Source: Pasteurellaceae bacterium (lineage in GTDB: Bacteria > Pseudomonadota > Gammaproteobacteria > Enterobacterales > Pasteurellaceae). From it: 64,000 nt of DNA. Position 1 is the first letter of the stretch, and every line of letters begins with the position of its first letter. This document shows positions 28,579-51,491 of this stretch, one piece after another. The stretch lies in NCBI GenBank assembly GCA_030528525.1, contig JAUMYT010000004.1, positions 68,407 through 132,406 on the forward strand, written 5' to 3'. The notes beneath the pieces are model-generated. The model worked only from the letters and a program-made list of their open reading frames with translations. It was not told the DNA's origin and ran no database searches. The position numbers were made by a program, and so were the translations under genes.

Positions 28579-28750
28579 CTCTCTCCCGTTTACGGGAGAG
28601 AGACAGCAAAAAATGCGTTCAGTATTTTTTGCAGAGAGAGGGCAACAAGTAGTGATGTATCACTTATTTTTAAATTTAGAAGCCCTCTCCCTCCGAAAAT
28701 CCTATGGATTTTCTCCACCCTCTCCCGTAAACGGGAGAGGGTAATTGATA
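28579..28750. repeat. Family B MITE-like element with hairpin termini (CCCGTTTACGGG)
   Basis: ctctctcccgtttacgggagagagac...ccctctcccgtaaacgggagaggg. Confidence 0.75.
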
Positions 28751-28813
28751 GGGAGTAGATTTGCAGAAAATTGCAAAGATCTGCCCCCTTGCATTGGGGA
28801 TTATCACAGTTTC

Positions 28814-28879
28814 GTAGGATGGGCTTTAGCCCATCAATATCATAAATAGATTAAAATGATGGGCTAAAGCCCATCCTAC
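28814..28879. repeat. Family C palindrome, copy 5
   Basis: gtaggatgggctttagcccatc...gatgggctaaagcccatcctac. Confidence 0.8.
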
Positions 28880-28892
28880 ATTAGGATAAAAA

Positions 28893-30227
28893 ATGGCAAA
28901 TCGTAAATATTTCGGCACAGACGGCGTGCGTGGCGAAGTGGGAAAATTCCCCATCACGCCTGAATTTGCATTAAAACTGGGTTGGGCAGCAGGCAAAATC
29001 CTTGCCACACAAGGCTCTAAGAAAGTGTTGATCGGCAAAGACACTCGTATTTCAGGCTATATGCTGGAATCCGCATTGGAAGCGGGGTTAGCTGCCGCTG
29101 GGCTTTCTACTGCATTCACTGGCCCAATGCCAACGCCAGCGATTGCCTATCTCACTCGAACTTTCCGTGCTGAAGCAGGCATTGTGATTTCTGCATCGCA
29201 CAACCCCTATTACGACAACGGCATCAAGTTCTTCTCAGCGAGTGGCGAAAAACTGCCCGATGAGGTGGAAGAAGCTATCGAAAAATTGCTTGATGAGCCG
29301 ATGGATTGCGTTAGCTCTGCCGATTTAGGGCGAGCCAGCCGAATCAACGATGCCGCAGGGCGTTATATCGAATTTTGCAAAAGCACTTTCCCAGTCCATT
29401 TAAGCCTTGAAGGGTTCAAAATTGTGGTGGACTGTGCTAATGGAGCGACCTACCACATTGCGCCAAACGTGATGCGTGAACTTGGGGCGGAAGTGATTGA
29501 AATCGGCACACTCCCTGATGGCTTGAATATCAACGAAAAATGCGGTGCGACAGACATCAACGCTTTACAAAAAGTCGTGGTAGAGTCAGGTGCGGATGTC
29601 GGCTTAGCCTACGACGGCGATGGCGACCGCTTGATTATGGTCGATCACTTAGGCAATAAAGTCGATGGCGACCAAATCCTATTCATCATTGCTCGTGAAG
29701 CCTTGCGTGCAGGTAAATTGCAAGGCGGTGTGGTCGGTACCTTAATGAGCAATATGAGCTTGGAAATCGCCTTAAAAGATCTGGCGATTCCATTCGTGCG
29801 TGCCAACGTGGGCGACCGCTATGTGCTTGAATTACTGAAAGAAAAAGGCTGGAAGTTCGGCGGCGAAAACTCGGGGCATATCATTGTGCTAGACAAAAAC
29901 ACCACAGGCGATGGTATTGTGGCATCGTTGGAAGTGCTGGCTGCAATGGCAAATCACAAATTGAGCTTGAACGAATTGGCGAAAGCCGTGCCGTTGTTCC
30001 CACAAGTGTTGCTGAACGTGCGGTTTGAAGGCGGAGCAAATCCACTAGAAAGCGAAGAGGTGAAAGCGGTAGCCGCTGCTGTGGAGCAACGCTTGGCAGG
30101 TAAAGGACGCATTCTTCTACGGAAATCAGGCACCGAGCCGTTAATTCGTGTGATGGTAGAATGCCAAGATGCGGAGCTAGCACAACGTAGTGCTGAAGAA
30201 ATTGTTGAAGCGGTGAAAAGGAATTAA
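28893..30227 (+). CDS. glmM: phosphoglucosamine mutase
   Basis: 444 aa; active site SASHNP. Confidence 0.9.
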
Positions 30228-30286
30228 GGCAAGCGGTGCGATGAGTAATGTTTTTTACACATCGTGCCGTTTTTGTAATCATTATG

Positions 30287-30345
30287 TAGGATGGGCTTTA
30301 GCCCATCCTACAGATATTTGAGTGATGGGCTAAAGCCCATCCTAC
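30287..30345. repeat. Family C palindrome, copy 6 (two hairpins each followed by CCTAC)
   Basis: gtaggatgggctttagcccatcctac...gatgggctaaagcccatcctac. Confidence 0.8.
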
Positions 30346-30357
30346 GATTAAGGGAAA

Positions 30358-31020
30358 ATGATGGATCAACTAGAAATGAAAAAAATTGCGGCACGAGCGG
30401 CGTTACAATATGTGAAACCTGACACCATTGTCGGTGTGGGAAGCGGTTCAACGGTAAACTGCTTCATTGAAGCCTTGGGCGAAATGCGTGATGAGATCAA
30501 AGGGGCGGTGGCAGCCTCCAAAAATTCCGAAGAGTTACTTCGCAAACAAGGCATTGAAGTGTTCAACGCCAACGATGTGTCAAGCCTTGATGTCTATATT
30601 GACGGGGCGGACGAAATCACGCCACAGGGCTATATGATCAAAGGTGGCGGTGCGGCATTAACCCGTGAAAAAATCGTCAGCTCGCTAGCGAAGAAATTCG
30701 TTTGCATTGTGGACGAAAGCAAACAAGTGGACGTGCTCGGCTCGACTTTCGCTTTGCCTGTGGAAGTGATCCCAATGGCTCGCTCCTACGTTGCTCGCCA
30801 ATTAGTCGCCTTAGGCGGCAGCCCAGAATGGCGTGAAAATGTGGTCACAGACAACGGCAACGTGATTTTAGATGTGTACAATTTCAAAATCCTAGAACCG
30901 CTCAAAATGGAGCAGACGATCAACAACATCGCAGGAGTCGTCACCAACGGCATTTTCGCCCAACGCTACGCTAACGTGACCATTGTCGGCACACCAAGCG
31001 GGGCGAAGATTATTGAATAA
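30358..31020 (+). CDS. rpiA: ribose-5-phosphate isomerase A
   Basis: 220 aa; GVGSGSTV and DGADE motifs. Confidence 0.9.
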
Positions 31021-31063
31021 CAAGGGGGCAGATTTTTGAAAAAATCTGCAAAATCTTTTTGGG
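31021..31063. repeat. Family A repeat
   Basis: caagggggcagatttttgaaaaaatctgcaaaatctttttggg, directly after rpiA stop. Confidence 0.7.
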
Positions 31064-31170
31064 ACGTATGCAATACGTCCCTACATTAGATGATGATCGA
31101 AAAATGGGAAAAATCCCCGTTTGTAGGGGCGTATTGCATACGCCCACGGACGCAAACATTGCGTCCCTAC
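31061..31170. repeat. Family C compound element (three hairpins framed by GTAGG/CCTAC)
   Basis: gggacgtatgcaatacgtccctac...gtaggggcgtattgcatacgccc acggacgcaaacattgcgtccctac. Confidence 0.75.
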
Positions 31171-31205
31171 ATTTATAACGTACAAACACAACATTCGGAG
31201 CTATT

Positions 31206-32438
31206 ATGACAACAAAAGTTTCTCTTGATAAATCCAAAATCAAATTCGTCCTACTTGAAGGCGTGCACCAAAACGCCCTTGATGCCCTAAAAGCCGCAGG
31301 CTATACCAATATCGACTTCTACAAAAAAGCGTTAGACGGTCAGGAATTGGTCGAGGCGATCAAAGATGCCCACTTTGTCGGCATTCGTTCCCGCACTTTT
31401 TTAACCGAAGAAGTACTGGCACAAGCCCCGAAACTCATCGCCATCGGCTGTTTCTGTATCGGCACTAACCAAGTGGATCTGGAAGCTGCTAAACGCCGTG
31501 GGATTCCTGTGTTCAACGCCCCGTTCTCCAACACTCGCTCGGTGGCGGAATTGGTCTTGGGCGAAATTTTGTTATTGATGCGTCAAGTGCCCACAGCAAA
31601 TGCAGAAGTTCACCGTGGCATTTGGAATAAATCCGCCACAGGCTGTAACGAAGTGCGTGGCAAAAATCTTGGGATTATCGGCTACGGACATATCGGTTCG
31701 CAATTGAGCATTTTGGCGGAAGCCATTGGTATGCGAGTCTATTTCTACGACATCGAAAACAAATTGCCACTAGGTAACGCTCAACAAGTTGCTAGCCTTG
31801 ATGAATTATTGGCGTTCAGCGATGCCGTTTCATTGCACGTGCCTGAAAATCCATCGACCAAAAATTTATTAAATGCCAGCAATCTGTCGAAAGTGAAAAA
31901 AGATGCGGTGATCATCAATGCGGCTCGTGGCACGGTGGTGGATATTGATGCGTTGGTCGATGTGTTGAAATCAGGGCATATTCGTGGGGCAGCGTTAGAC
32001 GTGTTCCCTGAAGAGCCGGCGTCCATCAACGATCCATTTGTTTCGCCATTAACCGCATTTGACAACGTGATTTTAACCCCGCACATTGGCGGATCGACCT
32101 CCGAAGCACAGGCGAATATCGGCTCGGAAGTGGCAAATAAATTCGTGAAATATTCCGACAACGGCTCCACACTCTCTGCGGTAAACTTCCCAGAAGTTTC
32201 CCTACCAGAACACAGCGGCACCAAGCGTTTGTTACACATTCACACCAACAAACCAGGTATTTTGAACAAAATCAACCAAGTGTTCGTGGATTTAGAGGTA
32301 AACATCGCCGCCCAATACTTACAAACCGACCCAACCATTGGTTATGTGGTGATTGATGTCGAATCAGAAAATACTGACGAAGCATTAAAACGTTTGAAAG
32401 CGATTGATGGCACCATCCGCAGCCGTGTGTTGTATTAG
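31206..32438 (+). CDS. serA: D-3-phosphoglycerate dehydrogenase
   Basis: 410 aa; NAD-binding GIIGYGHIGSQ; C-terminal ACT domain. Confidence 0.9.
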   Translation: MTTKVSLDKSKIKFVLLEGVHQNALDALKAAGYTNIDFYKKALDGQELVEAIKDAHFVGIRSRTFLTEEVLAQAPKLIAIGCFCIGTNQVDLEAAKRRGIPVFNAPFSNTRSVAELVLGEILLLMRQVPTANAEVHRGIWNKSATGCNEVRGKNLGIIGYGHIGSQLSILAEAIGMRVYFYDIENKLPLGNAQQVASLDELLAFSDAVSLHVPENPSTKNLLNASNLSKVKKDAVIINAARGTVVDIDALVDVLKSGHIRGAALDVFPEEPASINDPFVSPLTAFDNVILTPHIGGSTSEAQANIGSEVANKFVKYSDNGSTLSAVNFPEVSLPEHSGTKRLLHIHTNKPGILNKINQVFVDLEVNIAAQYLQTDPTIGYVVIDVESENTDEALKRLKAIDGTIRSRVLY

Positions 32439-32507
32439 GGCTTAAGCAATTCTATTGTTAGATAGAACACAATAGTATTGCTTTGATTTTAACCATTTTT
32501 GAATGGA

Positions 32508-32540
32508 AAAAGGCACTTGTTATATGCAAGTGCCTGTTTG
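32508..32540. terminator. Bidirectional hairpin between serA and island gene
   Basis: aaaaaGGCACTTGttatatgCAAGTGCCtgttt: 8-bp stem flanked by A-run and T-run. Confidence 0.5.
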
Positions 32541-32545
32541 AATCA

Positions 32546-33277
32546 TTAAATGAATTTAATACAATCTAACTCTTCTAGATAAATCTTATATAACTCCATA
32601 AATATCTTATCAATAAGAATCAATAGTGAGAACCATATAAAATAATTCTCATACGGATAATCTTCTTTTACTAGTGTATTCAATGATGGTAAGTTCTGCT
32701 GATAAGATCTTGTATTGTGAGCAATTCTATTTCTATTTTTATAGAAACTATCTTCATACTGTTGTTTTAAGTGTTCACCTAGAATATTCTTACAATCAAT
32801 CGCAAAGTAAGATTCCTTAATTGTTTTCCAATAATCTAAATAGGTTGTATAGCCTCTTTGAGACCAATAATAAAAAAGGCTATTCTCGACAGTATTACTG
32901 ATATTGCTATAAGATAATATCTCCTTTTTTAGTTTATTAAAGGTGTTTACAAAATCAAAATTAGGTGATGTTATTTTAATTTGTTCTATAAGGAATTTAT
33001 ATACATCATTTTTATCCTTATACTGTGAGCAACCAGATTTAGACAGGTTGTTATTTAAGAATGTATATCTAAAATTATGGTTGTTGTTTGCCATTTCCCA
33101 TAGGATACATTTTATTTTCTGTTCTTGTGCTCCAGCCATTTTAATAAGAATAGACTGCAGTATATAATCTGATAAGGGATGGGTTTCAATGCCATGTTTT
33201 ATATTTTTAACCGATGATACTCCCTCATTCAGGATATCTGAAACAGGGGATAATATAAATTTAATATTTTGGTTCAT
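32546..33277 (-). CDS. Hypothetical protein with HEPN-like Rx4H motif (RNRIAHN), possible Abi_2/AbiD-like; in low-GC island
   Basis: 243 aa ORF, about 25-30% GC by hand count on samples; motif ...YKNRNRIAHNTRSY...; 17-nt overlap with upstream DUF262 gene. Confidence 0.6.
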   Translation of the reverse strand: MNQNIKFILSPVSDILNEGVSSVKNIKHGIETHPLSDYILQSILIKMAGAQEQKIKCILWEMANNNHNFRYTFLNNNLSKSGCSQYKDKNDVYKFLIEQIKITSPNFDFVNTFNKLKKEILSYSNISNTVENSLFYYWSQRGYTTYLDYWKTIKESYFAIDCKNILGEHLKQQYEDSFYKNRNRIAHNTRSYQQNLPSLNTLVKEDYPYENYFIWFSLLILIDKIFMELYKIYLEELDCIKFI

Positions 33278-34487
33278 TTAAATACTCCCCATAAATTTCA
33301 ATTGATCGACTAATTCTCTTTCTAAGGTGTGTAAGCCCATTGGGTGAACGACTATGGCGTTCATCATTTTTCATGTCATTAATACAATTTTCTATTTCGT
33401 TTCTTATTTCATAATTTTTATCATAGTTGATAGAGCAACCATCAAGTAAAATATAATATATAGCCCCAAACAAATACATATCTAAATCAATTATTGATTT
33501 GAATTCTTTATTATCTGCTAACAAAGTAGAAAGATAATTTTTTAAAGCGGACATTCGGATTATATGATTGTTATTTTCGATTAATGGCAGAGAATCTCCA
33601 AATTTACTATGTTCTTTCTCTGATTCTTCATTTTGCTCTGAGCAGCAAGAGATCACAGAATATATATACTCTTCGTAGTATTTCTCCATTTGAGATTTTT
33701 GACCTCTAGCAACCTTTTTAATATCATTACAATATTTATATTCGGATAACAACGACAAATATCGAATAAAGTCCGCTTTGCTTGGGTTACCATTAATGGT
33801 TAACTTATATTCTTTAGTAAATTCTGGATCAAAAAATGGTTGTAAATCCTCAACTAAATAATAAAGAGAAGCCCTGCTTTCTTGTGGAAGTAAAGGTTTT
33901 CCTTGGATATTTATTTCTTTAAAAACAGAAGCATAATATTTTTGGTGTGCTTTTTGATCGTTATTATCTGGAACTAAATAGCAAAAGCCTAAATAATGCT
34001 TGTCGAAAAAATCATCCTCTAGTTGTAATGATAATTCTTTATATTCTTTTCCTATCTTCGTGATAATTTGCTCTTTTGTTTTCCCTTTTTCCTGCAACAC
34101 CGCAAAACGCCATTCTAGGATATTATCGATCCTATCGTCAGGATCGTCATTTTCATCAATTGTACTGTCGTATAGTTCTATATTATCTGATGATTTCTTA
34201 AAACGTTCTTTATCAGGAAATATACCCAAATAAGCGAGTAAGATACTGGTAAGTCTTTGCTGACCGTCGATAATAAGATTGACATTTTCTCCAGATTCAT
34301 CTCTGAATGAGCCAATCGTGACAGGAGGGATAAAATGCTCTTTTCTAAAGGAGTTTATTAATGTGCTCACTTTGGGTTCATCCCATACAAAATATCGCTG
34401 ATATTTGGGTAATAATAAATTTTTTGATAAAATTAGATCGAGCCAATGTTTTAGAGAATATTCTCCATAATAAACTTTATTTCCCAT
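33261..34487 (-). CDS. DUF262 (ParB/Srx-like, GmrS-type N-terminal domain) protein without DUF1524 HNH domain; in low-GC island
   Basis: 408 aa; KYQRYFVWDEPKVSTLINS...NLIIDGQQRLTSILLAYLG matches the DUF262 DGQQR signature; C-terminal 170 aa unassigned. Confidence 0.7.
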   Translation of the reverse strand: MGNKVYYGEYSLKHWLDLILSKNLLLPKYQRYFVWDEPKVSTLINSFRKEHFIPPVTIGSFRDESGENVNLIIDGQQRLTSILLAYLGIFPDKERFKKSSDNIELYDSTIDENDDPDDRIDNILEWRFAVLQEKGKTKEQIITKIGKEYKELSLQLEDDFFDKHYLGFCYLVPDNNDQKAHQKYYASVFKEINIQGKPLLPQESRASLYYLVEDLQPFFDPEFTKEYKLTINGNPSKADFIRYLSLLSEYKYCNDIKKVARGQKSQMEKYYEEYIYSVISCCSEQNEESEKEHSKFGDSLPLIENNNHIIRMSALKNYLSTLLADNKEFKSIIDLDMYLFGAIYYILLDGCSINYDKNYEIRNEIENCINDMKNDERHSRSPNGLTHLRKRISRSIEIYGEYLNEPKY

Positions 34488-34744
34488 AAAATGCCTCTTG
34501 CACTGATGTTGTCATATTATGTTCTTCACTCACAATGAGAACTCTATTTTTTCATTACTTTCTCAACTCTATTATCCTCTAGTTTATTCCAACATGCTTT
34601 TCTCCATACTACTCTCTTTGGGAATTAAAGGTACACAGACGGCTAAAAGAGACACTATAGGTGCGACAGCATAGTGTTGAGCGAGTAGTGAATGGTGAAT
34701 TATTGTTTATAAAGCAAACAGTGACAACTTTCGGATTTTCAATT

Positions 34745-34760
34745 TGTGAGGCTGATCACA
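34745..34760. promoter_or_regulatory. Consensus CRP binding site
   Basis: aattTGTGAggctgaTCACAaatt: perfect TGTGA-N6-TCACA. Confidence 0.6.
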
Positions 34761-34788
34761 AATTAATATAGACTTAATTACGTGAAGA

Positions 34789-34822
34789 GGAAAAAAAATG
34801 GCTAGCCTTTTGGCTAGCCATT
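34789..34822 (-). terminator. Rho-independent terminator of dppA paralog
   Basis: Minus strand AATGGCTAGCC-aaaa-GGCTAGCCATT followed by TTTTTTTT. Confidence 0.75.
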
Positions 34823-34844
34823 TTCGTGCTATGAGAAGTTTGGA

Positions 34845-36440
34845 TTAATCGGTTAACTTCGTACCATAGAAATACGAGTAGCCGAATGGGCTTTGTTTGT
34901 AATCCTGTACACGTTTGCTGGTTGGGGCAAAGTTGATCGAGTGAGCCACGTTGATCCACGGGGATTGCTCTTTGATAATCACTTGAGCTTGCTCGTAGAG
35001 TTTGGCTCGCTCGCCTTTATCAGACAAGCCAATCGCTTTCGCTAATAACGCATCTAAATCCGCATTTTTGAAACGTGCGTAGTTGCTGTTGCCGATGTTA
35101 TCGCTGCCTAATAATGGCGATAAGAAGTTATCAGGATCACCATTGTCGCCTGACCAGCCGTAAGTCCCTGCGGTCAATTCACCTGCCTTGGTGCGTTTGA
35201 TGTAATCGCCCCATTCATAGCTAACCAGTTTGGTTCTTACGCCCACTTTTTCCCAGTCTGCTTGAACTAATTCCGCCATACGGCGTGGGTTCGGGTTAGA
35301 CGCACGCACCACAGGTTGCACCCAAATGTCCGTTTCAAAACCGTTTTCAAAACCCGCTTCTTTCAATAATTCCTTGGCTTTTTCTGGATTGTATTCGTAG
35401 TCGGTAATGCTGTCGTTATAGCCCCAAATTGTTGGTGGCAATGGGTTTTTCGCTTGCACGCCTGCACCACGATAAACCGCTTCTAAAATTGCTTTTTTGT
35501 CTACCGCATAGTTCAACGCTTGACGCACTTTTACGTTATCAAACGGGGCTTTTTCGGTGTTGAATGCGATATAAGCAATGTTCAACCCTGGCTGTGAAAG
35601 CAAGTTCACTTTCGGGTCGGTTTTCATTTTGTCTAAATCGGCTGCATTCGGGAAGTCCATCATATCGCACGCCCCTGCTTGCAATTTCGCATAACGAGCG
35701 GTGGCATCTGGCACGATGTCGAAGATCAAACGATCAATATCCGCTTTACCGTTCCAGTAGTCTTTGTTAGCTAAGAAACGAATTTTTTGATCTAACTGAT
35801 AACCTGCAAACACGAATGGGCCTGTACCGATTGGGGTGGTGTCCACTGTTTCAGGTTTGCCTTCGGCTAACATTTTGTCGGCATACTCGGCAGAGTAGAT
35901 CGAGATGAAGTCCATCCCCAAGCTTGACAAGAACGTTGAATCTTGACGATTTAAAGTAATTTTCACCGTGTGATCGTCCACTTTTTCCACCGATTTCAAC
36001 AAGGTTGGGAATTTCATCGCCTTGAAGTACGGGTAGGTTGCTTTCGACACATTGTGGTATGGGTGGTTTGGATCTAACTGGCGTTGGAACGAGAATACCA
36101 CATCGTCCGCATTGAAATCACGGCTCGGCTTGTAATCTTTGGTGGTGTGGAATTTCACGCCTTTGCGTAAATTGAAGGTGTAAGTTAAACCATCTTCGCT
36201 CACCGTCCAACTTTCTGCCAATGCAGGCTCGATTTCCGTTGAACCACGTTTGAATTCGACCAAACGGTTATAAACTTGTTGCGAGCTGGCGTTATAAGAA
36301 ATCCCGTCCATCACTAACGCAGGGCTGAAGCCTGTTGGCGAACGACTCACGCAGTTGATAAAAGTTTTATCCGCTGCTTGGGCGAAACCTGAAACGAGTA
36401 AACTCGCCGCAATCAATGAGAATTTAGTCTGTAATTTCAT
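34845..36440 (-). CDS. ABC transporter substrate-binding protein, family 5 (orphan DppA/HbpA-like paralog)
   Basis: 531 aa with signal peptide; extensive similarity to dppA at 40011; no permease or ATPase genes adjacent. Confidence 0.8.
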   Translation of the reverse strand: MKLQTKFSLIAASLLVSGFAQAADKTFINCVSRSPTGFSPALVMDGISYNASSQQVYNRLVEFKRGSTEIEPALAESWTVSEDGLTYTFNLRKGVKFHTTKDYKPSRDFNADDVVFSFQRQLDPNHPYHNVSKATYPYFKAMKFPTLLKSVEKVDDHTVKITLNRQDSTFLSSLGMDFISIYSAEYADKMLAEGKPETVDTTPIGTGPFVFAGYQLDQKIRFLANKDYWNGKADIDRLIFDIVPDATARYAKLQAGACDMMDFPNAADLDKMKTDPKVNLLSQPGLNIAYIAFNTEKAPFDNVKVRQALNYAVDKKAILEAVYRGAGVQAKNPLPPTIWGYNDSITDYEYNPEKAKELLKEAGFENGFETDIWVQPVVRASNPNPRRMAELVQADWEKVGVRTKLVSYEWGDYIKRTKAGELTAGTYGWSGDNGDPDNFLSPLLGSDNIGNSNYARFKNADLDALLAKAIGLSDKGERAKLYEQAQVIIKEQSPWINVAHSINFAPTSKRVQDYKQSPFGYSYFYGTKLTD

Positions 36441-38230: not shown

Positions 38231-38275
38231 ATGTTTACTTTTGCTATCCATCATCATCACCATTTCCCTGAATAA
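38231..38275 (+). CDS. His-rich leader peptide MFTFAIHHHHHFPE
   Basis: AGGAG RBS 5 nt upstream; five consecutive His codons; followed by hairpins and terminator before transporter gene. Confidence 0.6.
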   Translation: MFTFAIHHHHHFPE

Positions 38276-38362
38276 TCTTTCGGGCATTTGGCGTGTTCGG
38301 AAGAACTTCCGAACAATCGAAATGTGATAAATGATAGCAAATTAAGCATAAACCATTTCAAA

Positions 38363-38405
38363 CCCCTTCGGAAGTCCAAACTTTCGAAGGGGTTTTCTTT
38401 TTCAT
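38363..38405 (+). terminator. Attenuator terminator
   Basis: CCCTTCGGAAGT-ccaa-ACTTTCGAAGGG followed by GTTTTCTTTTTC; upstream CTTCCGAA can alternatively pair with the 5' arm. Confidence 0.65.
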
Positions 38406-40010: not shown

Positions 40011-41606
40011 ATGCAAAAACTCACTAAGCTCTCTTTCATTGCACTCGCCGTCATTTCAGGTACGGCAATGGCAGCACCAAAAACCTTCGTCTATTGTAGT
40101 GAAGCATCGCCTTCGTTTCTTAGCCCACAGTTAGGCACAGATGGGGCAACGTTGGACGCGTCAGGTCAGCCGATGTTTAACCGTTTAACAGCATTTGAAG
40201 CTGGCACAACCAATATTATTCCATCATTGGCAGAAAAATGGGATGTGTCAGAAGACGGTAAAACTTACACTTTCCACTTGCGTAAAGGCGTGAAATTCCA
40301 CGCTAACAAAGTGTTTAAACCAACCCGTGACTTCAATGCCGATGACGTTTTATTCTCTTTCAATCGTCAGTTAGATCCAAATCACCCATATCACAAAGTG
40401 TCAGGCGGCACTTACGAATACTTCACCGGTATGGATATGCAAAACATTATCGACAAAGTGGAAAAAGTCGATGATTACACCGTGAAAATTAGCCTAAAAG
40501 TGGCGAACGCCCCGTTTTTAGCGAACTTGGCGATGGATTTTGCCTCTATTCTGTCTGCCGAATATGGCGACAAAATGCTCAAAGCGGGCAAACCTGAAAC
40601 CGTGGATAACCAACCAATCGGCACTGGCCCGTTTGAATTTGTCTCTTATCAAAAAGATTCCACAGTGCGTTTCAAAGCCTTTGAACAATACTGGGCAGGC
40701 AAAGCGAAAATCGATCGCTTAGTGTTTGCGATTACGCCTGACGCGTCGGTGCGTTATGCCAAATTGAAAAAAGGTGAATGCCACGCAATGCCATATCCAA
40801 ACCCAGCGGACGTGGAAAAACTCAAAACCGATTCCGAAATTGAGTTGCTCACTCGCCCTGGTTTGAACATTGGCTATCTCAACTTCAACGTGCAAAAAGC
40901 CCCGTTTGACAATGTGAAAGTCCGTCAAGCGTTAAGCTATGCGGTAAACAAAGATGCGATCATTGAAGCGGTTTACCAAGGGGCTGGGCAAAAAGCGAAA
41001 AACCCAATTCCACCAACAATGTGGTCGTACAATGAAGACGTGAAAGATTACGACTACGATCCAGAAAAAGCCAAAGCATTGTTGAAAGAAGCAGGCTTTG
41101 AGAACGGCTTTGAAACGGATTTATGGGCAATGCCTGTTTCTCGTCCGTACAACCCGAACGCTCGCCGTATGGCGGAATTAGTTCAAGCCGACTGGGAAAA
41201 AGTGGGCGTGAAAGCGAAAATTGTTAGCTACGAATGGGGTGAATACCTCAAACGGATGCGTGCAGGCGATCACCAAACGGGTATGATGGGCTGGACGGGC
41301 GACAACGGCGACCCAGACAACTTCTTGAACACTTTGTTAAGCTGTGCAGCGGTGAACTCAGGGTCTAACTATGCGAAATTCTGCCACAAAGAGTTTGATG
41401 GCATTGTGACCAAAGCCGCTCAAGAAACCGATGTGGCAAAACGTACCGAGCTGTACAAACAAGCTCAGTTGCTGTTTAAAGAACAAGCCCCGTGGATCAC
41501 CGTGGCTCACTCCACCACCTACTTCCCAGTACGCAAAGAAGTGAAAGGCTATGTGGTTAGCCCATTCGGCTTACACGATTTCTACCCTGTGGAGTTAGCG
41601 AAGTAA
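40011..41606 (+). CDS. dppA: dipeptide ABC transporter substrate-binding protein
   Basis: 531 aa; near collinear match to E. coli DppA. Confidence 0.9.
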   Translation: MQKLTKLSFIALAVISGTAMAAPKTFVYCSEASPSFLSPQLGTDGATLDASGQPMFNRLTAFEAGTTNIIPSLAEKWDVSEDGKTYTFHLRKGVKFHANKVFKPTRDFNADDVLFSFNRQLDPNHPYHKVSGGTYEYFTGMDMQNIIDKVEKVDDYTVKISLKVANAPFLANLAMDFASILSAEYGDKMLKAGKPETVDNQPIGTGPFEFVSYQKDSTVRFKAFEQYWAGKAKIDRLVFAITPDASVRYAKLKKGECHAMPYPNPADVEKLKTDSEIELLTRPGLNIGYLNFNVQKAPFDNVKVRQALSYAVNKDAIIEAVYQGAGQKAKNPIPPTMWSYNEDVKDYDYDPEKAKALLKEAGFENGFETDLWAMPVSRPYNPNARRMAELVQADWEKVGVKAKIVSYEWGEYLKRMRAGDHQTGMMGWTGDNGDPDNFLNTLLSCAAVNSGSNYAKFCHKEFDGIVTKAAQETDVAKRTELYKQAQLLFKEQAPWITVAHSTTYFPVRKEVKGYVVSPFGLHDFYPVELAK

Positions 41607-41677: not shown

Positions 41678-41790
41678 AATCTGCCCCCGCTTGCGGGGGA
41701 AGTGGTTGAGCGAAGCGAAACCGAAGGGGGCGATAATTACCCCCTACCCCTTGCTTCGCAAGGTACTTCCCCCGTAAACGGGGGCAGAAT
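41678..41790. repeat. Family B MITE-like element
   Basis: atctgcccccgcttgcgggggaagt...acttcccccgtaaacgggggcagaat inverted termini. Confidence 0.8.
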
Positions 41791-42822: not shown

Positions 42823-42950
42823 TCCCCTCCCCCGTTTACGGGGGAGGGATAGGGTGGGAGGAACAATTTTGCAAAACGTGGCATAAATTCAGCCCCCGTT
42901 GCTTCGCAATCTCCCCTCCCCAGCCCTCCCCCGCAAGCGGAGGAGGGAGT
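42823..42950. repeat. Family B MITE-like element
   Basis: atcccctcccccgtttacgggggagggat...ccctcccccgcaagcggaggagggag. Confidence 0.75.
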
Positions 42951-44858: not shown

Positions 44859-44878
44859 TTGATTATAGGTAGGGGCGG

Positions 44879-44941
44879 ACCTAGGTGTCCGCCCGTTATC
44901 ATTAAATCATTTTTCGGGCGAACACATAGGTTCGCCCCTAC
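44879..44941. repeat. Family C palindrome, copy 8 (between dppD and dppF)
   Basis: gtaggggcggacctaggtgtccgccc...gggcgaacacataggttcgcccctac. Confidence 0.8.
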
Positions 44942-44955
44942 AGAAGAATAACAAT

Positions 44956-45936: not shown

Positions 45937-46096
45937 AATATTAAAAAAGACTGAGCTACCATCTATACCTGATGAGATAGGATTGTATTCTCACTGAGTT
46001 ATAGATCACTGCTTCAGTCTTTTTATGTTTACCTATGATGGGAGGGAAGATTAGAAATATTTTGGTAAAATCTTCATATTTCTCCCCCCCTTGTAT

Positions 46097-47386
46097 CTAT
46101 TGTACTTTAGTCACTTTCGCCACGATGTAGCCGATCACACAACCGACCACCGCAAACGGTAACCATTCCATTGAAAGATCTTTCAGTGGTAGGTTAGCAA
46201 TAAATTCCACGCCTGCCACAGATAAAATCGACACAATAGTCACTAAACCAAGCGAAATTCGCTGTGCCAACAACGGCAATGGCAAGACGATGTTGATCAA
46301 CATTAAGAAGATGATGGTCATCGAAATTGGGTAAAGCACTAATAATACGGGTACAGACTTGCTGATCACCGCACTTAGGCCTTGGTTTGCCAAGGCAAAG
46401 CTGATTAAGATGAACAAGACGACATACATTTTGTAAGAAATTTTCGGGAAAATTTCGTGGAAGTATTCGCTCACGGCAACCGCTAAACCCACGGTGGTGG
46501 TTAAACAGGCAACCGATACGATGATACCTAAGACTAGACGACCTAGTTCACCAAAAGTTTCCGTCGCAGCAGTATTGAGAATATAGGTCCCAATATTCAT
46601 CCCTTTTGCATTTAAGTCTGCGAGAGTGTCTGCTGAAACAGGTAAATTGTTACCAATCCAACCTAATGCCACATAAATTAAACCCAACGCAACCGCAGCG
46701 ATAATGGCAGCTAAACTGGTTTGTTTGATTAATTCTGATTGGTTGCTGACTTTGGCTTTAATGGCATTTAGCACGATCACAGAGAATGCCAATGAAGCCA
46801 ACGCATCCATCGTGAAATAACCTTCTAACATACCGCCAACAAAGGCATTCTCTTTTGGTGTTGAGGCAGCAGGAACGGCATCGCTTGAGAATAACAGGTA
46901 AGCTTTTACCACTAAGGCAACAATAGAGATAAGTAAAATTGGCGTAAGCACCGAGCCAATACGGTCAACCATTTTGGAGGGATTTAAACTTAACCAAAGT
47001 GCTAAGCTGAAATAAATTACGGTGAAAATAAGCAGTGAAAGCCAGTTTGGATCTGTTAAAAACGGTAAAATCGCCATTTCATAGGCAGTTGCCCCTGTAC
47101 GAGGGCCTGCGAAGAATGGGCCAATTGCCAAATAAATTGCCATTAAAAAGGCAACAGAGAACCAAGGGTGAACACGGTTTAACACTGCTTTATAGCCACC
47201 TTGGTAAAACCCGCTGACAATAATACCGAGTAAAGGTAACCCGACTCCCGTTGCAACGAAACCTGCGATAGACGACCAAAATTCGCTACCGCTATCCAAA
47301 CCTAATTTTGGTGGGAAAATTAAGTTACCTGCCCCAAAAAAGATGGCAAATAACATAAAACCGACCACAAATACACTTTTATTCAT
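46097..47386 (-). CDS. brnQ: branched-chain amino acid transport system II carrier
   Basis: Start at internal MNKSVFVVGFMLFAIFFGAGNLIFPP...; LIVCS family. Confidence 0.85.
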   Translation of the reverse strand: MNKSVFVVGFMLFAIFFGAGNLIFPPKLGLDSGSEFWSSIAGFVATGVGLPLLGIIVSGFYQGGYKAVLNRVHPWFSVAFLMAIYLAIGPFFAGPRTGATAYEMAILPFLTDPNWLSLLIFTVIYFSLALWLSLNPSKMVDRIGSVLTPILLISIVALVVKAYLLFSSDAVPAASTPKENAFVGGMLEGYFTMDALASLAFSVIVLNAIKAKVSNQSELIKQTSLAAIIAAVALGLIYVALGWIGNNLPVSADTLADLNAKGMNIGTYILNTAATETFGELGRLVLGIIVSVACLTTTVGLAVAVSEYFHEIFPKISYKMYVVLFILISFALANQGLSAVISKSVPVLLVLYPISMTIIFLMLINIVLPLPLLAQRISLGLVTIVSILSVAGVEFIANLPLKDLSMEWLPFAVVGCVIGYIVAKVTKVQ

Positions 47387-47502
47387 TCTGTAAGACCTTA
47401 AAGTAAATAAAAAGAAAGGGGCAAATTTTACCCTAAAAAAAGCAATGAACCAATTCATTCTATGAATTGGTTCAATTTTATTTTGTAATCAATACAAAAT
47501 GG

Positions 47503-47537
47503 CTTTTGCACTTTTTGCCTAAGATCTGACCCCTTGC
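47503..47537. repeat. Family A repeat
   Basis: cttttgcactttttgcctaagatctgaccccttg. Confidence 0.6.
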
Positions 47538-47547
47538 AGGGCAGAAA

Positions 47548-48276
47548 TTAGTTCATATACAAGCCACCATTCACGTGAATGGTTTCGCCTGTGATGTAGC
47601 CTGCATCTTCAGAGGCTAAAAACGCCACGGCTTTGGCGATGTCTTTCGCTTGCCCAAGTTGCCCAGCAGGGATTTGACTTAAAATTGCATTTTTTTGCTC
47701 ATCAGTCAGTTCTTCGGTCATATCGGTAGCGATAAAGCCTGGGGCGACCACATTCACGGTAATGCCACGTGATGCCACTTCTTTGGCTAACGATTTAGAG
47801 AAACCAACTAAACCTGCTTTGGCGGCACAGTAGTTCGTTTGTCCTGGGTTGCCACTTGAGCCAACCACCGAACCAATGGTAATAATGCGACCGTAACGTT
47901 TTTTCATCATTGAACGCAACATTGCCTTTGACAAACGATAAACAGAGGTTAAATTGGTTTGAATGATGTCAAACCACTCATCGTCTTTCATTCGCATTAA
48001 CAGGTTATCACGCGTGATCCCGGCGTTATTAACTAAAATATCGATCTCGCCGAATTGCTCTTTGATGTGAGCCAACACTTGCTCGATAGAATCTGCATTG
48101 GCAACGTTTAACACCAAACCTTTGCCCTTCTCGCCTAAATAAGCAGAAATGCTTTCTGCCCCTTTTTCAGAGGTTGCGGTGCCGATCACAAATGCTCCTT
48201 TAGCCATTAATTCTTCGGCGATGGCACGCCCAATACCACGAGTTGCCCCCGTGACTAATGCGATTTTATTTTGCAT
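47548..48276 (-). CDS. fabG: 3-oxoacyl-[acyl-carrier-protein] reductase
   Basis: 242 aa; TGATRGIGRAIA; YCAAK. Confidence 0.9.
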   Translation of the reverse strand: MQNKIALVTGATRGIGRAIAEELMAKGAFVIGTATSEKGAESISAYLGEKGKGLVLNVANADSIEQVLAHIKEQFGEIDILVNNAGITRDNLLMRMKDDEWFDIIQTNLTSVYRLSKAMLRSMMKKRYGRIITIGSVVGSSGNPGQTNYCAAKAGLVGFSKSLAKEVASRGITVNVVAPGFIATDMTEELTDEQKNAILSQIPAGQLGQAKDIAKAVAFLASEDAGYITGETIHVNGGLYMN

Positions 48277-48295
48277 TGTTTTTCTCCATTTTGAT

Positions 48296-48475
48296 TGCCC
48301 TCGCCCGTTTACGGGAGAGGGACAGATTTGAGCTTCGTTCAGAAGCGAAAATCAGGGAGAGGGCAAAATCGTATTTTTCTAAAAAATCAGCGGTGGATCA
48401 CCCCTTTTCGCCCTCTCTCTGCGAAAAATTCTGAACGTATTTTTCGCTGTCTCTCTCCCGCAAGCGGGCGAGAGT
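48296..48475. repeat. Family B MITE-like element inserted between fabD and fabG
   Basis: tgccctcgcccgtttacgggagagggacag...ctgtctctctcccgcaagcgggcgagag. Confidence 0.75.
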
Positions 48476-48481
48476 CGCATA

Positions 48482-49417
48482 CTAAAACGTTAAACCATCA
48501 AATGATGCCACATCATTCACCGCTTTTGCAGTAATCTCTTTGGAAATCCGACCAGCCAAACCCGTTAAGACTTTATTCGGCCCGATTTCGTATAAGGTGG
48601 TCACCCCTTCGGCTGCCATTTTTTCGACAATTTCCGTCCAACGCACAGGGCTGTAAAGCTGACGAACCAACGCATTACGAATGGCTACCGCTTTGGTTTC
48701 TACTTGTACATCCACGTTGTTGATCACAGGCACTTGCGGTGCGTTAAGTGTAAGATGCACCAAGGCTTCCGCCAGTTTATCCGCCGCAGGTTTCATCAAT
48801 TCACAGTGTGAAGGCACACTCACTGCCAATGGTAAAGCACGTTTTGCCCCTGCTTCTTTACACAATGCACCTGCACGCTCTGCCGCCGTTTTTGTGCCTG
48901 CAATCACGACTTGCCCTGGCGAGTTGAAGTTTACCGCTGACACAATTTCGCCTGTTTCTTGTTGAGCTTGCTCACACGCGTTGATGATGGCTTCGTTATC
49001 CAAACCGATAATCGCAAACATCGCCCCTGTGCCTGCTGGCACGGCATCTTGCATTGCTTGACCACGTAATTCCACCAATTTCACCGCTTCTTGGAAATCC
49101 AACACGCCTGCACACACCAACGCAGAATATTCGCCCAAGCTATGCCCTGCCATTACCGCAGGTTTTTGCTCTGGGAATTTTTGTTGCCAAATGCGGTATA
49201 ACGCCACCGATGCGGTTAATAACGCAGGTTGCGTGCGGTGGGTTTGCCCTAAATCGTCTGCAGTTCCGTTTTGAACCAGATCCCATAAATCGTAGCCAAG
49301 CACATCGCTGGCTTGTTTGAAGGTTTCTTCCACGATTGGGTATAGCGGAGCAAGATCCGCCAACATTCCCACCGCTTGTGAACCTTGACCTGGGAATACC
49401 ATTGCAAATTTAGACAT
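48482..49417 (-). CDS. fabD: malonyl CoA-acyl carrier protein transacylase
   Basis: 311 aa; GHSLGEYSA active site. Confidence 0.9.
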   Translation of the reverse strand: MSKFAMVFPGQGSQAVGMLADLAPLYPIVEETFKQASDVLGYDLWDLVQNGTADDLGQTHRTQPALLTASVALYRIWQQKFPEQKPAVMAGHSLGEYSALVCAGVLDFQEAVKLVELRGQAMQDAVPAGTGAMFAIIGLDNEAIINACEQAQQETGEIVSAVNFNSPGQVVIAGTKTAAERAGALCKEAGAKRALPLAVSVPSHCELMKPAADKLAEALVHLTLNAPQVPVINNVDVQVETKAVAIRNALVRQLYSPVRWTEIVEKMAAEGVTTLYEIGPNKVLTGLAGRISKEITAKAVNDVASFDGLTF

Positions 49418-49456
49418 AGTTTGATCCTTAATTTTAAAGTTTCATAAATCTTGTAG

Positions 49457-49604
49457 ATTCTGCCCCCGCTTGCGGGGGAAGTACCGCCGAAGGCGGGGTA
49501 GGGGGCGAAACGATGGTTCTGCAAAAAATTGGTAAGAAATTACCGCTTGTTTGCCCCCTTCGGCTCGTTTCACTCGCCACTTCCCCCGCAAGCGGGGGCA
49601 GAAT
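49457..49604. repeat. Family B MITE-like element, intact reference copy
   Basis: ATTCTGCCCCCGCTTGCGGGGGAAGT...ACTTCCCCCGCAAGCGGGGGCAGAAT terminal inverted repeats; internal hairpins; contains ACCGCTTGT (USS reverse complement). Confidence 0.8.
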
Positions 49605-49606
49605 TT

Positions 49607-50230
49607 TTAATCTCTCGTATAATCTTCCCGCACAATCCGCACATATTGCCCGATACTGTGCCAGCCGAGTGTGAGATAAAGCTGTTTGCCCATTTCGCTA
49701 GCACAGAGCAAGCCTTGGTGAATACCCCGTTCAGCCGCTTTTTTGTTGAGTAACGCCATCACTAGCGTGCCGAAACCCTGACGGCGGAAATTCGGCTCGG
49801 TGCCGATTCTGTCTGGCACAATAAAGCCGTGGTAAAAACCCGCTTGCCCTTCGCACACCAGCTCGTCGTTTGGGCTGAAGAGGCTTAACACCTCCCGATT
49901 GTCGCTTTCTTCCCATTTAAGGGTAAATTTTTCGGGTAACGTGACCTCTTGTTGGGACAGTTGCTCACATACCATCATATCGGCAGTCATTGTCTGCTTC
50001 CAGCCTTGCGGAACCGCCTTCAAACCGCTAACGCACAAATAATCTTTATTCGACACTCTCGGCAAAATTTCGCCTAAATTTTCTGGGCTGAACATCAACC
50101 ACTCAAATTGTCGCCTGCCGTCATTAAGGGCAAAGCAGTATCCGTTTTCAACAGCGGTAGGTTGCGGAATTTGGCGAGAAATCACCCAACCGCCGATCCA
50201 ATTTTCCCAAAATGTTTTGCTGTTCATCAT
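49607..50230 (-). CDS. GNAT family N-acetyltransferase
   Basis: 207 aa; C-terminal RRQGFGTLVMALL...GW acetyl-CoA binding motif. Confidence 0.65.
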   Translation of the reverse strand: MMNSKTFWENWIGGWVISRQIPQPTAVENGYCFALNDGRRQFEWLMFSPENLGEILPRVSNKDYLCVSGLKAVPQGWKQTMTADMMVCEQLSQQEVTLPEKFTLKWEESDNREVLSLFSPNDELVCEGQAGFYHGFIVPDRIGTEPNFRRQGFGTLVMALLNKKAAERGIHQGLLCASEMGKQLYLTLGWHSIGQYVRIVREDYTRD

Positions 50231-50244
50231 GTCTCTTTTCCATA

Positions 50245-50277
50245 TTTTGCAAAAACTCGGCGGTTCTCACCCCCTTG
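50245..50277. repeat. Family A repeat (reverse orientation)
   Basis: ttttgcaaaaactcggcggttctcacccccttg. Confidence 0.7.
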
Positions 50278-50982
50278 CTAATCCGCCGAATAATACAATT
50301 TGCCGATTTCTATCTTCTGGCGACCTTGGGCTTCACGCCATTTATTCGTATCACGCAACGAATACACACAGCCACAATACTCTTGCTGATAGAACCGCTC
50401 CCGTTTGCTGATTTCAATCATTCGTTGCGAGCCGCCGCCTTTTCGCCAGTTGTAATCCCAATAGACCACATCATCGTATTTTTCCGCCGCACGATGTCCA
50501 CAGCCGTTGATTTGGTTCATATCTTTCCAGCGAGAAATCCCCAAGCAACTGGTAAATACAGGGAAGCCATTTTCGTGGGCGTATTGAGCGGCTTTTTCAA
50601 ACCGCATATCAAAGCACATTGTGCAACGAATGCCACGCTCTGGCTCGTCTTCCATACCTTTGGCACGGTTGAACCACTCTTGGCGGTCGTAATCGGCATC
50701 AATAAACGGAATACCCCATTTTTCCGCAAAACGAATGTTCTCTTCCTTGCGGATCAAATACTCTTTGAGTGGGTGAATATTCGGGTTGTAGAAGTAGATG
50801 GTAAATTCAATACCCGAAGCGTGAATCGCTTCCATTACTTCGCCCGAACAAGGGGCACAGCAAGAGTGCAACAGCAATTTGTTGTGTCCGTTGGGGAGTT
50901 CTAATTTTTCACGCACAAACGGAGCGTTGGGGTCTTTGCCTTTACGGGTTTTCTTGATGGTTTTTTGTTCTGTCATAATCAT
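50278..50982 (-). CDS. queH: epoxyqueuosine reductase QueH (DUF208)
   Basis: [11 protein letters not shown] and CTMCF cysteine motifs. Confidence 0.8.
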
Positions 50983-50998
50983 TTATGTGAAAGATAAA

Positions 50999-51491
50999 AT
51001 TCTGCCCCCGCTTGCGGGGGAAGTACCCGAACGACAGTTCGGGGGTAGGGGGCAAAATCGTTTTAAGGGTTACGGTTTAAATGCAGATAAATTTCATCTA
51101 GCACGTTATTTAATTGGGTTTTGATTTGATGATTAGTAAACCGTAATACTTTAAATCCCGATTGATTTAGTATAACTGTTCTTTGTTCATCATAATCTAA
51201 TGCTTTGGGTTCAAAATGTTGTGAACCATCAATTTCAATAATTAATTTAGCAGGAATACAAACAAAATCTACGATATATCCTGCAATCACGGCTTGTCGC
51301 CGAATTCTAAATTGGCTTAATCTGCCTTTACGGATTTGTTGCCATAAAATGACCTCTTCAAAAGTCATATTTGAGCGAAGTTGCTTTTTATATTTTGTTA
51401 GGGTTGCTGTTTCTGATTGCCTAAAATTTTTCATATTGCCCCCTACCCCTTCGCTACGCTCAGGTACTTCCCCCGCAAGCGGGGGCAGAAT
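50999..51491. mobile_element. Family B element split into two halves by a DUF559 gene
   Basis: Left half ATTCTGCCCCCGCTTGCGGGGGAAGT...(50999-51060) and right half ...ACTTCCCCCGCAAGCGGGGGCAGAAT (51436-51491) flank ORF exactly. Confidence 0.7.
51063..51434 (-). CDS. DUF559 (Vsr/restriction-endonuclease-like) domain protein
   Basis: 124 aa from MKNFRQSE...; VDFVCIPAKLIIEIDGSQH...VLRF matches DUF559 core; ORF-track N-terminal 22 aa are read-through of repeat. Confidence 0.75.
   Translation of the reverse strand: MKNFRQSETATLTKYKKQLRSNMTFEEVILWQQIRKGRLSQFRIRRQAVIAGYIVDFVCIPAKLIIEIDGSQHFEPKALDYDEQRTVILNQSGFKVLRFTNHQIKTQLNNVLDEIYLHLNRNP

Follow-up and report, generated by a model that had tools for sequence, protein, structure and literature searches.

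Six short repeat elements in a Pasteurellaceae genome are built as inverted pairs of hairpin-bearing arms, and one of the six carries between its arms an intact gene for a nuclease of the DUF559 family. The elements, here called family B, lie in a stretch of 64,000 nucleotides from Pasteurellaceae bacterium (assembly GCA_030528525.1, contig JAUMYT010000004.1, positions 68,407 to 132,406 of the forward strand), which is referred to below as the window. They are insertions relative to the genomes of related bacteria, their arms share the design of the BoxC/PIT/TM_ECO repeats of Escherichia coli and of the Whalefall-1 motif, and arms of this kind bracket DUF559 genes in other phyla. By analogy with the REPINs and their RAYT enzymes, DUF559 may be the cognate nuclease of such a system and the short copies its non-autonomous doublets, a reading to which we assign a probability of about 0.5.

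Architecture of family B and the gene in its sixth copy

The initial annotation had listed six copies of an element resembling a MITE (a miniature transposable element with inverted repeats), numbered e1 to e6 here in the order of their positions. All six are present in the window where they had been placed, and only the end of e1 needs correction, lying at about 28742 rather than 28750, while its start at 28579 stands. The 26-nt terminal inverted repeats that had been given for the intact copy are matched exactly at 49457-49482 and 49579-49604. The copies were also rightly regarded as one related family, having terminal inverted repeats, nested hairpins, and stems whose sequence varies while the pairing is kept. 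The window has 11 occurrences of the hairpin core CCCG-YWWR-CGGG (CCCGYWWRCGGG), where shuffles that preserve dinucleotides predict 0.06, and a twelfth terminus, at 42924-42947, differs from the core by one mismatch. A broader count of hairpins whose 5' half is rich in pyrimidines found 12 in the window, all 12 within the six intervals. Moreover, the termini common to the copies at 49457-49604 and 50999-51491 agree at 29 of 29 positions, and e1 matches e4, in inverted orientation, at 83% over 94 nt. Were the copies unrelated chance hairpins or an artefact of assembly, only their general GC-rich hairpin appearance would be explained. The excess of cores, the long-range similarity between copies, and the recurrence of the family in independent assemblies of other species lead us to reject that explanation, which we regard as extremely improbable; the copies align with one another, and the corresponding spacers in relatives are short.

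Three forms can be distinguished. Sub-family B1 (e2 at 41678, e5 at 49457 and e6 at 50999) has the termini TCTGCCCCCG, sub-family B2 (e1 at 28579 and e4 at 48296) has the termini CYCTCKCCCG, and e3 (42823) is a third, simpler form close to canonical BoxC. Each element is an inverted pair of arms, and from the outside to the inside an arm contains a hairpin (H1), usually a second hairpin (H2), and a G-rich box (G-box). H1 has a pyrimidine 5' strand and a purine 3' strand, and its loop, read in the orientation of the arm, is always YTTR. H2 follows after a spacer of 1-4 nt (AGT-A, or ACAG in B2) and is present in 10 of the 12 arms; calculated with DNA parameters, its stability relative to shuffled sequences reaches z <= -3 in 7 of 11 arms, with a mean z of -3.6. 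The G-box reads GGTAGGGGGC or GAAGGGGGC in B1 and CAGRGAGAGGGC in B2. Arm a of B1 has an H2 of the form stem-GA-GC-GNA-GC-GA-stem, for example GGTT-GA-GC-GAA-GC-GA-AACC in e2. Its loop is conserved and its stem covaries, with compensatory changes in the outer (GGTT/AACC, GGC/GCC, CCT/AGG and CCCC/GGGG) and inner pairs (GC/GC or GT/AC). In arm b of B1, H2 has a freely varying stem and a GAA or GNA triloop, often GCGAAGC. The same dichotomy between arms a and b is found in B2, where the loop of arm a is conserved as CGTTCAG. The order from a to b is constant in every scorable copy. Because H1 and H2 were out of register between lineages in a MAFFT alignment of 37 arms, no covariance model was built, and the arms were instead folded one by one and compared with shuffles.

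The centre between the arms is reduced to 7-8 nt in e2 and is therefore dispensable. Otherwise it bears a motif resembling an uptake signal sequence (USS) and is about 40 nt long in copies lacking an open reading frame (ORF). The canonical Apl-type USS ACAAGCGGT together with TTTTGCA lies in the centres of e5 and of copies from a Glaesserella metagenome-assembled genome (MAG; locus L001) and from [Haemophilus] paracuniculus (locus L005).

The sixth copy, e6 (B1, minus strand, 50999..51491), lies between ispB and queH. It had been described as a long MITE copy; instead, an intact gene for a DUF559 endonuclease of 124 amino acids (Vsr-fold PD-(D/E)XK, Pfam PF04480) occupies 51063..51437 on the minus strand, between arm b (51001-51053) and arm a (51438-51489), which are complementary at 95% over 41 nt. 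The encoded protein matches PF04480 with E=1.2e-38 and 131.7 bits, against a cut-off of 20.6, and PDB entry 3HRL, an 'endonuclease-like protein' from structural genomics, with E=1e-25. It is also similar to NCBIfam PRK09767 and retains all invariant residues of an alignment of 35 homologues, D57, E68, D70 and H74 among them. The G-box of arm a, GGTAGGGGGC, ends 3 nt ahead of the DUF559 ATG, the position of a Shine-Dalgarno sequence. A survey of the PD-(D/E)XK superfamily grouped DUF559 with Vsr and the EDxHD homing endonuclease I-Bth0305I (3r3p), so that the protein belongs to the same fold cluster. Unlike Vsr and I-Bth0305I, however, the gene has neither a cytosine methyltransferase partner nor an intron or intein context. 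As a candidate for a known defence system it was rejected, PADLOC returning only weak nuclease-domain similarity (DpdF, mREase). The initial annotation had proposed a cognate enzyme of the RAYT or IS200-like kind elsewhere in the genome. Within the window, neither an IS200-like Y1 (RAYT) gene flanked by family B repeats nor a MITE parent with the same termini and a transposase was found; the only gene that shares the termini, and is flanked by the repeats, is the DUF559 gene of e6, the only ORF-bearing copy.

The remaining elements are distributed over 23 kb together with e6. On the plus strand, e1 (B2, ORF-less, 28579..28742) begins 10 nt past the ilvA stop codon and consists of arm a (28579-28643), a centre (28644-28681) with the degenerate USS-like sequence ACAAGTAGT, and arm b (28682-28741, reverse strand). 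Between dppA and dppB lies e2 (B1, ORF-less, plus strand, 41678..41790), with arm a at 41680-41731 and arm b at 41739-41788. Between dppB and dppC, e3 (plus strand, 42823..42950) has two near-canonical BoxC/TM_ECO arms, each made of H1, a loop of 2-3 nt and a G-box (H1 at 42825-48 followed by ATA and GGGTGGGAGG; H1 at 42924-47 on the reverse strand), around a centre that bears a motif of the USS-like kind termed family A below. The two other copies are on the minus strand. Between fabD and fabG, e4 (B2, ORF-less, 48296..48475) is formed by arm b (48298-48364), centre (48365-48409) and arm a (48410-48474). Its neighbour e5 (B1, ORF-less, 49457..49604) lies 2 nt past the stop codon of a GNAT gene and 39 nt ahead of the fabD start, with arm b at 49459-49506, arm a at 49553-49602 and, in its centre (49507-49552), a complete Apl-type USS whose ACCGCTTGT is at 49542-49550. 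Overall, the elements are placed 2-71 nt past a stop codon, and the next start codon follows after 16-39 nt in five cases and after about 150 nt for e1. The location inside operons noted in the initial annotation holds, and since the elements lie between co-directional genes (dppA/B/C, fabD/G, ispB/queH), they must be co-transcribed. The direction from arm a to arm b is that of host transcription in e1, e2, e4, e5 and e6, and probably in e3.

Comparison with relatives indicates that these elements were inserted. The FabD proteins closest to that of the window, at 86% identity, are those of Glaesserella, Ursidibacter, Mannheimia and [Haemophilus] paracuniculus; neither FabD nor the DUF559 protein of the window matched a recorded sequence exactly. 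In relatives without an element or extra ORF at this place, the spacer between fabD and fabG measures 30-73 bp, compared with 205 bp in the window, and the spacer between ispB and queH measures 36 bp in Ursidibacter arcticus, compared with 527 bp. Because the spacers of relatives are short at the same junctions, the elements are insertions and not assembly artefacts. Members of the family also occupy the fabD-fabG junction in the Glaesserella MAG (L001) and, with a different hairpin sequence, in Glaesserella parasuis (L002), while [H.] paracuniculus (L005) has one upstream of fabD and another downstream of fabG.

DUF559 genes and arms in other genomes

Orthologues of the e6 gene are found in three settings. 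The closest, 90% identical, adjoins ispB on metagenome contigs, as in the window. Another, 71% identical, lies between genes for a beta-galactosidase and a phosphotransferase system (PTS) EIIA protein (EIIA-Man) in Ursidibacter sp., and the third, 68% identical, between pilA and pilB in G. parasuis. In all three, the same arm a stands upstream of DUF559 and arm b downstream. Across these three loci, identity to the window is 98, 94 and 87% for arm a but 82, 70 and 72% for the DNA of the ORF; ispB is 80% identical. Since the non-coding arm is better conserved than the gene that it flanks, arm a must be under direct sequence constraint. In G. parasuis, the DUF559 gene is single-copy and always at the pilA-pilB junction, and only the number of arm units varies. 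There, at about 1640-2800 of loci L084-L091, the DUF559 cassette and several tandem arm units separate pilA from pilB in the operon of the type IV (competence) pilus. These units are 68-106 nt long and vary in number from strain to strain; in one assembly the site contains a run of N. The metagenome contigs with the closest orthologue (L081-L083) terminate exactly in the outer hairpin of arm b, which suggests that short-read assemblies break at the repeats and that multiple copies exist in those genomes as well.

The association extends to distant homologues. A metagenome scan with an alignment of DUF559 proteins at 38-51% identity yielded 80 loci. When inverted repeats between the two flanks were scored by Smith-Waterman alignment at 73 loci, 44 of these lay above the 95th percentile of a cross-locus null and 31 above the 99th. 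The top alignments all have the form CCCTCTCCC-loop-GGGAGAGGG-TT-GGGTGAGGG, and several include a second hairpin with a GAA loop. Close to the DUF559 genes, up to 160 nt from the ends of the ORFs, there are 4.76 hairpins per kb, compared with 0.05 per kb inside the ORFs and 0.55 per kb farther out; relative to 1.23 Mb of unrelated control loci (0.030 per kb), the enrichment at the gene ends is about 150-fold. Where the flanks were long enough (67 loci), a hairpin stands upstream of the gene in 53, downstream of it in 51 and on both sides in 42. The G-box is directed inward, to the gene, 88 times and outward 42 times. In addition, the C-terminal tails of annotated homologues (PPHPDPLPKGEG, PPNPPFTKGG and similar) arise where translation reads through into such hairpins; these proteins come from sources named Methylobacter, Nomurabacteria and a gammaproteobacterial MAG. 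At one locus (L120, 709-924), a group II intron (RF02005, 143.6 bits) directly adjoins a DUF559 gene whose flanks form a long inverted repeat, nearly perfect over about 98 aligned positions.

The DUF559 gene of E. coli is ycjD, and in strain K-12 an arm, CCCCTCGCCCCTCTGGGGAGAGGGTTAGGGTGAGGGG, lies beside it. This arm occurs at a median of 17 places per genome in 5,426 complete E. coli genomes, 3,378 of which possess ycjD, as a single copy. A chimeric query of arm plus ycjD was used to rank the genomes, and 60 were taken evenly down the ranking. The 37 with ycjD have 11-26 arm places (median 17), compared with 1-19 (median 5) in the 23 without it (Mann-Whitney p=8e-9). This difference fits a role of the gene in maintaining or multiplying the arms and is support for it, not proof. 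The surroundings of the gene were inspected in K-12 (L173, 1351040-1351406 of NC_000913) and O55:H7 (L174). Downstream of ycjD, a partial duplication of its 3' end with degenerate arms is followed by a complete BoxC arm. Strains without ycjD were rejected as a clean empty site: in them a TetR/RND efflux locus takes the place of the whole spacer between sapF and fabI, and its junction has no arm.

Kinship with BoxC, Whalefall-1 and other repeats

The initial annotation had compared the elements with Correia and ERIC repeats, but their closest known relatives are instead the BoxC/PIT/TM_ECO intrastrand-triplex repeats and the Whalefall-1 motif. The repeats known as BoxC in E. coli since the early 1990s were named PIT elements in 2000 (Hoyne and Maher), described as the TM_ECO triplex in 2015 and as a G-quadruplex/hairpin switch in 2016. 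There are 23 copies in K-12 and 3,610 in 262 proteobacterial genomes, and the published pattern of this intrastrand triplex motif is CCCTCNCCC-N3-6-GGGNGAGGG-N3-GGGNGAGGG, in which the second loop does not exceed 6 nt (Holder et al., 2015; PMC4666352). Among Enterobacter strains, some have more than 300 triplex motifs and others fewer than 30. As single-stranded DNA, the motif forms a purine-motif triplex in vitro. Five pairs in K-12 are inverted, each with one type A and one type B motif, and the loci are unusually rearranged between strains, and no transposase, integrase or other mobility function was found in their vicinity (PMC4666352).

The arms in the window follow the same design. When G·G-C, A·A-T and T·A-T triads are scored, the G-box matches the H1 purine strand in antiparallel (mirror) register at 8-9 of 10 positions in all 12 arms. 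The antiparallel register beats the parallel one in 9 of the 12, and for 11 arms 0-4% of shuffles attain the value observed. The G-box covaries with the H1 purine strand, which is the signature of a triplex. The arms of e3 fit the published TM_ECO pattern with 2 and 3 mismatches, with 0 such matches expected. The other ten fail the literal pattern and keep the design, with the hairpin H2 of 17-34 nt standing in place of the 3-nt loop. Judged by sequence, the window arms are BoxC/PIT-type motifs in which the second loop is replaced by H2, and the published finder would miss those ten because its loops are limited to 1-6 nt. In both groups a loop joins a C-rich strand to a purine strand, and a second loop leads on to a G-tract that is a mirror repeat; both are intergenic and multi-copy, and both sometimes form inverted pairs of two differing arm types. 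In contrast to the published repeats, all six window elements are doublets with fixed a/b polarity, and the centre bears an uptake-signal-like motif. The published repeats have no reported mobility gene, whereas in the window and at 80 further loci a gene for a DUF559 nuclease is bracketed by the arms.

The elements have no match in Rfam at the gathering threshold. In E-value mode, whole elements match only eukaryotic microRNA-precursor models, which reflects their long-hairpin shape and nothing more. Among sub-threshold matches of the arms there is a single bacterial family, Whalefall-1 (RF01762), with 20.4 bits at 48294-48364 (e4) and 33.5, 25.2, 20.5 and 19.7 bits for four arms around another DUF559 gene (locus L131), all under its gathering score of 37. 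Single arms nevertheless answer to the published description of the Whalefall-1 structure, and the ACAG spacer and CAG-G-box of sub-family B2 are shared with it (Weinberg et al., 2010; PMC2864571). Whalefall-1 is known only from whale-fall metagenomes and was filed, with covariation, as a probable small RNA (PMC2864571); it has so far had no link to inverted pairs, DUF559 or BoxC.

With repetitive extragenic palindromic (REP) sequences, their doublets (REPINs) and RAYT genes, the present system shares a single-copy gene bracketed by inverted repeat copies, many ORF-less inverted doublets that fold as long hairpins, the lack of a target-site duplication, a gene that stays at one locus within a species, and a repeat that is more conserved than the gene. 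In the window, the ratio of ORF-less to ORF-bearing copies is 5:1, and the gene is single-copy in G. parasuis and E. coli; this likeness is one of analogy. The differences are equally clear: the enzyme is a PD-(D/E)XK (Vsr-fold) nuclease rather than the HUH/Y1 transposase of RAYT, and the unit is a hairpin with a mirror G-tract rather than the GTAG-headed palindrome of REP. Like the classical MITEs (Correia/NEMIS of Neisseria, ERIC/IRU), family B elements are 110-180 bp long, intergenic, co-transcribed and non-coding (five of the six lack an ORF) and have terminal inverted repeats. In contrast to them, no target-site duplication was seen in family B, which has neither a DDE-transposase parent nor sequence similarity. 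Rfam returned no Correia or ERIC match at gathering score and no relevant one at E<=5, although Rfam may not hold models for either. What we take to be the Correia consensus does not resemble the family B termini.

The window is unusually rich in differing intergenic repeat families. GTAG-headed palindromes (GTAGGATGGGCTTTAGCCCATCCTAC) form inverted pairs at 22071-22136, 28812-28879 and 30271-30345; they look like classical REP/REPIN sequences of the RAYT-associated kind, are distinct from family B, and in one case adjoin e1. Two more small palindromic families end in CCCTAC / GTAGGG, namely GGACGTATGCAATACGTCCCTAC (5732-5794 and 31062-31173) and GGGCGAACACATAGGTTCGCCCCTAC (24996-25033 and 44916-44953). 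A further motif, family A, has the consensus (T/A)(A/G)CAAGGGGG(T)GAGA-N~10-TTTTGCAAAA and is nearly always intergenic, with about 27 sites in the window (e.g., 8486, 13325, 26279, 31021, 38079, the inverted pair 41612/41662, 50271, 53966/54015, 59048 and 63752). Its segment-3 motif (TTTTGCAAA) and spacing are those of the Apl-type uptake signal, with the core CAAGGGGG replacing CAAGCGGT. The 8-mer CAAGGGGG or its complement occurs 22 times, and a relaxed CAAGGGG search finds 33 sites, about 27 with the full motif, whereas the canonical ACAAGCGGT occurs only 6 times. The source organism may use a diverged uptake signal. Among the neighbouring genes, an ORF at 26365-27027, just upstream of ilvA and downstream of a thiamine pyrophosphate (TPP) riboswitch (26152-26247, minus strand), contains three tandem repeats that are rich in Cys and His, with runs of HHHHHH (repeat families D8 and D14), and may encode a metal-binding protein. 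Two dppA-like periplasmic binding-protein genes, at 34845-36440 (minus strand) and 40011-41606 (plus strand), are about 71% identical in DNA and opposite in orientation (inverted repeats I1, I2 and I4); between them lie the leader of a histidine operon (38251-38399) and two further genes.

A proposed role for DUF559 and its alternatives

From the gene-arm association and the design of the arms, we infer that DUF559 could be the mobilising enzyme and that the form it recognises would be folded single-stranded DNA. Because the G-box mirrors the H1 purine strand, a single strand can fold into a hairpin with a third strand. DUF559 would be a single-copy, vertically kept nuclease that recognises and nicks folded arms while the DNA is single-stranded, during replication, repair or natural transformation. 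Nicking would cause arm doublets to be copied, excised and inserted anew in AT-rich spacers immediately past stop codons. The full-length form carries the DUF559 gene between its arms, with the G-box in the role of its ribosome-binding site. Copies in operons are transcribed passively, and the only survivors would be those that spare the downstream ribosome-binding site and lie in the orientation without a sense-strand terminator. A domesticated, RAYT-like gene fits the occurrence of the G. parasuis gene at one locus with varying arm units and the single-copy state of ycjD.

Several observations weigh against this reading. A Vsr-like nuclease of 124 amino acids is not known to have strand-transfer activity. 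A target-site duplication, proposed in the initial annotation as something to look for, was not seen when the flanks of the six copies and of loci L005, L081 and L092 were inspected by eye; there is no consistent direct repeat, and the flanks are simply A/T-rich. No clean filled/empty polymorphism was found within a species, and the variation within G. parasuis is limited to changes in arm copy number by recombination. In E. coli, phylogroup confounds the comparison, the low-count ycjD-negative genomes being mostly of B2-type and O157 lineages, which leaves few independent events. Moreover, arms persist without the gene, as all 5,426 genomes keep some of them while 38% lack ycjD. The mismatches in H1 (7 G·T versus 2 C·A) are too few to identify the folding strand. 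Finally, the triplex was detected neither in double-stranded DNA nor by dimethyl sulfate footprinting in vivo (Holder et al., PMC4666352).

The arms may instead have spread by other means, with DUF559 as a selfish, free-standing homing endonuclease that cuts the centre of a pre-existing ORF-less doublet and is copied in by repair, the two arms providing the homology. The clustering of DUF559 with Vsr and I-Bth0305I (3r3p) is consistent with this, as are the position of the ORF, always in the same slot between G-box and C-box, the homology of e5 and e6 right up to the ORF boundaries, and the presence of the ORF at differing loci in differing genera. An active homing gene should, however, convert most of its sites, so that one ORF-bearing copy against five ORF-less ones, and single copies per genome in G. 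parasuis and E. coli, count against it. The ORF-less centres are also unconserved, and that of e2, with its few nucleotides, leaves no room for a common recognition site, while the greater conservation of arm a than of the gene points to the arms as the recognised part. We therefore regard homing as unlikely. Likewise improbable, in our judgement, is that the arms multiply and are lost through slippage at replication, through recombination and, in Pasteurellaceae, through natural transformation to which the central uptake signal contributes, with DUF559 acting as a host repair nuclease for hairpin or triplex structures and linked to the arms through regulation by them or co-selection with them. 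Near-identical arms at unrelated loci would then be left unexplained, as would the polar inverted a/b bracket around the gene across phyla. Such a scheme does agree with the repair function of Vsr, itself a nickase, with the unequal-crossover-type variation of G. parasuis, with the Apl-type or variant uptake signals in ORF-less centres, and with the rearranged TM_ECO loci that have no mobility genes nearby (PMC4666352). The fewer arms where the gene is absent run counter to it, because loss of a guardian should raise instability, though either direction is arguable.

Also quite unlikely is a main role as signals for stability, processing or translation in polycistronic mRNA, with selection on RNA structure, in line with the suggestion of the initial annotation and comparable to REP in malEFG or to Correia elements. 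In its favour, each of the six copies is found between co-directional genes with its a-to-b polarity following transcription, the H1 loops are of the G(CUUG)C type, and pairing of the G-box with the 5' half of H1, which is possible, would conceal the ribosome-binding site of DUF559; Whalefall-1, with its covariation, was scored as a probable RNA (PMC2864571). The arms are symmetric as DNA, however, and in one transcript the second arm presents complementary loops (CAAG, UUC). In addition, the G-box mirrors the purine strand instead of complementing it, RNA is stated not to form triplexes of the purine-motif kind, and PIT elements showed neither promoter nor terminator activity and no effect on RNA polymerase (PMC4666352). 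A function in mRNA also says nothing of how copies reach new loci. Terminators on the sense strand were considered and rejected, as terminator-like sites with a hairpin and T-run occur at the elements only antisense to the operons. The lack of sense terminators, the fixed polarity and the tight placement suggest selection against polar insertions rather than a demonstrated RNA function. GAA loops of the GCGAAGC type form exceptionally stable DNA mini-hairpins. Given these loops, the symmetry of the arms as DNA, the mirror-repeat design and a partner with a DNA endonuclease fold, recognition probably at the level of DNA rather than RNA is favoured.

The repeat class BoxC/PIT/TM_ECO, and REP- or MITE-like intergenic palindromes in general, are already known. 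According to the searchable literature, what appears to be new is the Pasteurellaceae family in which the second loop holds a hairpin and the centre an uptake signal, the finding that Whalefall-1 is equivalent to a BoxC-type arm, the unit formed by the polar a/b doublet and, above all, the systematic association with DUF559. Literature searches for DUF559, PF04480 and ycjD, for the hairpin strings and for Pasteurellaceae MITEs found nothing that links DUF559 to repeats. To our knowledge, BoxC repeats have been assigned no origin, enzyme or function, and DUF559, a very widespread domain with a solved structure (3HRL), has no known role. We raise the possibility, tentatively, that DUF559 is the missing enzyme partner of BoxC/PIT/TM_ECO and Whalefall-1, in which case these proteins would be widespread structure-specific PD-(D/E)XK nucleases that mobilise inverted triplex-type doublets in single-stranded DNA.

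The window links three orphans, BoxC, DUF559 and Whalefall-1, and makes the origin of BoxC and the function of DUF559 testable, in E. coli with ycjD. It is a compact natural example, with one gene-bearing and five gene-less copies close together. If the proposed role of DUF559 is correct, this would be a second REPIN/RAYT-like system, with a wholly different enzyme fold, extending from the Pasteurellaceae and E. coli to candidate-phyla bacteria. For the Pasteurellaceae, the consequences are that such elements lie inside the dpp and fab operons and, in G. parasuis, inside the pilA-pilB operon of the competence pilus, that they break short-read assemblies, and that they carry uptake signal sequences.

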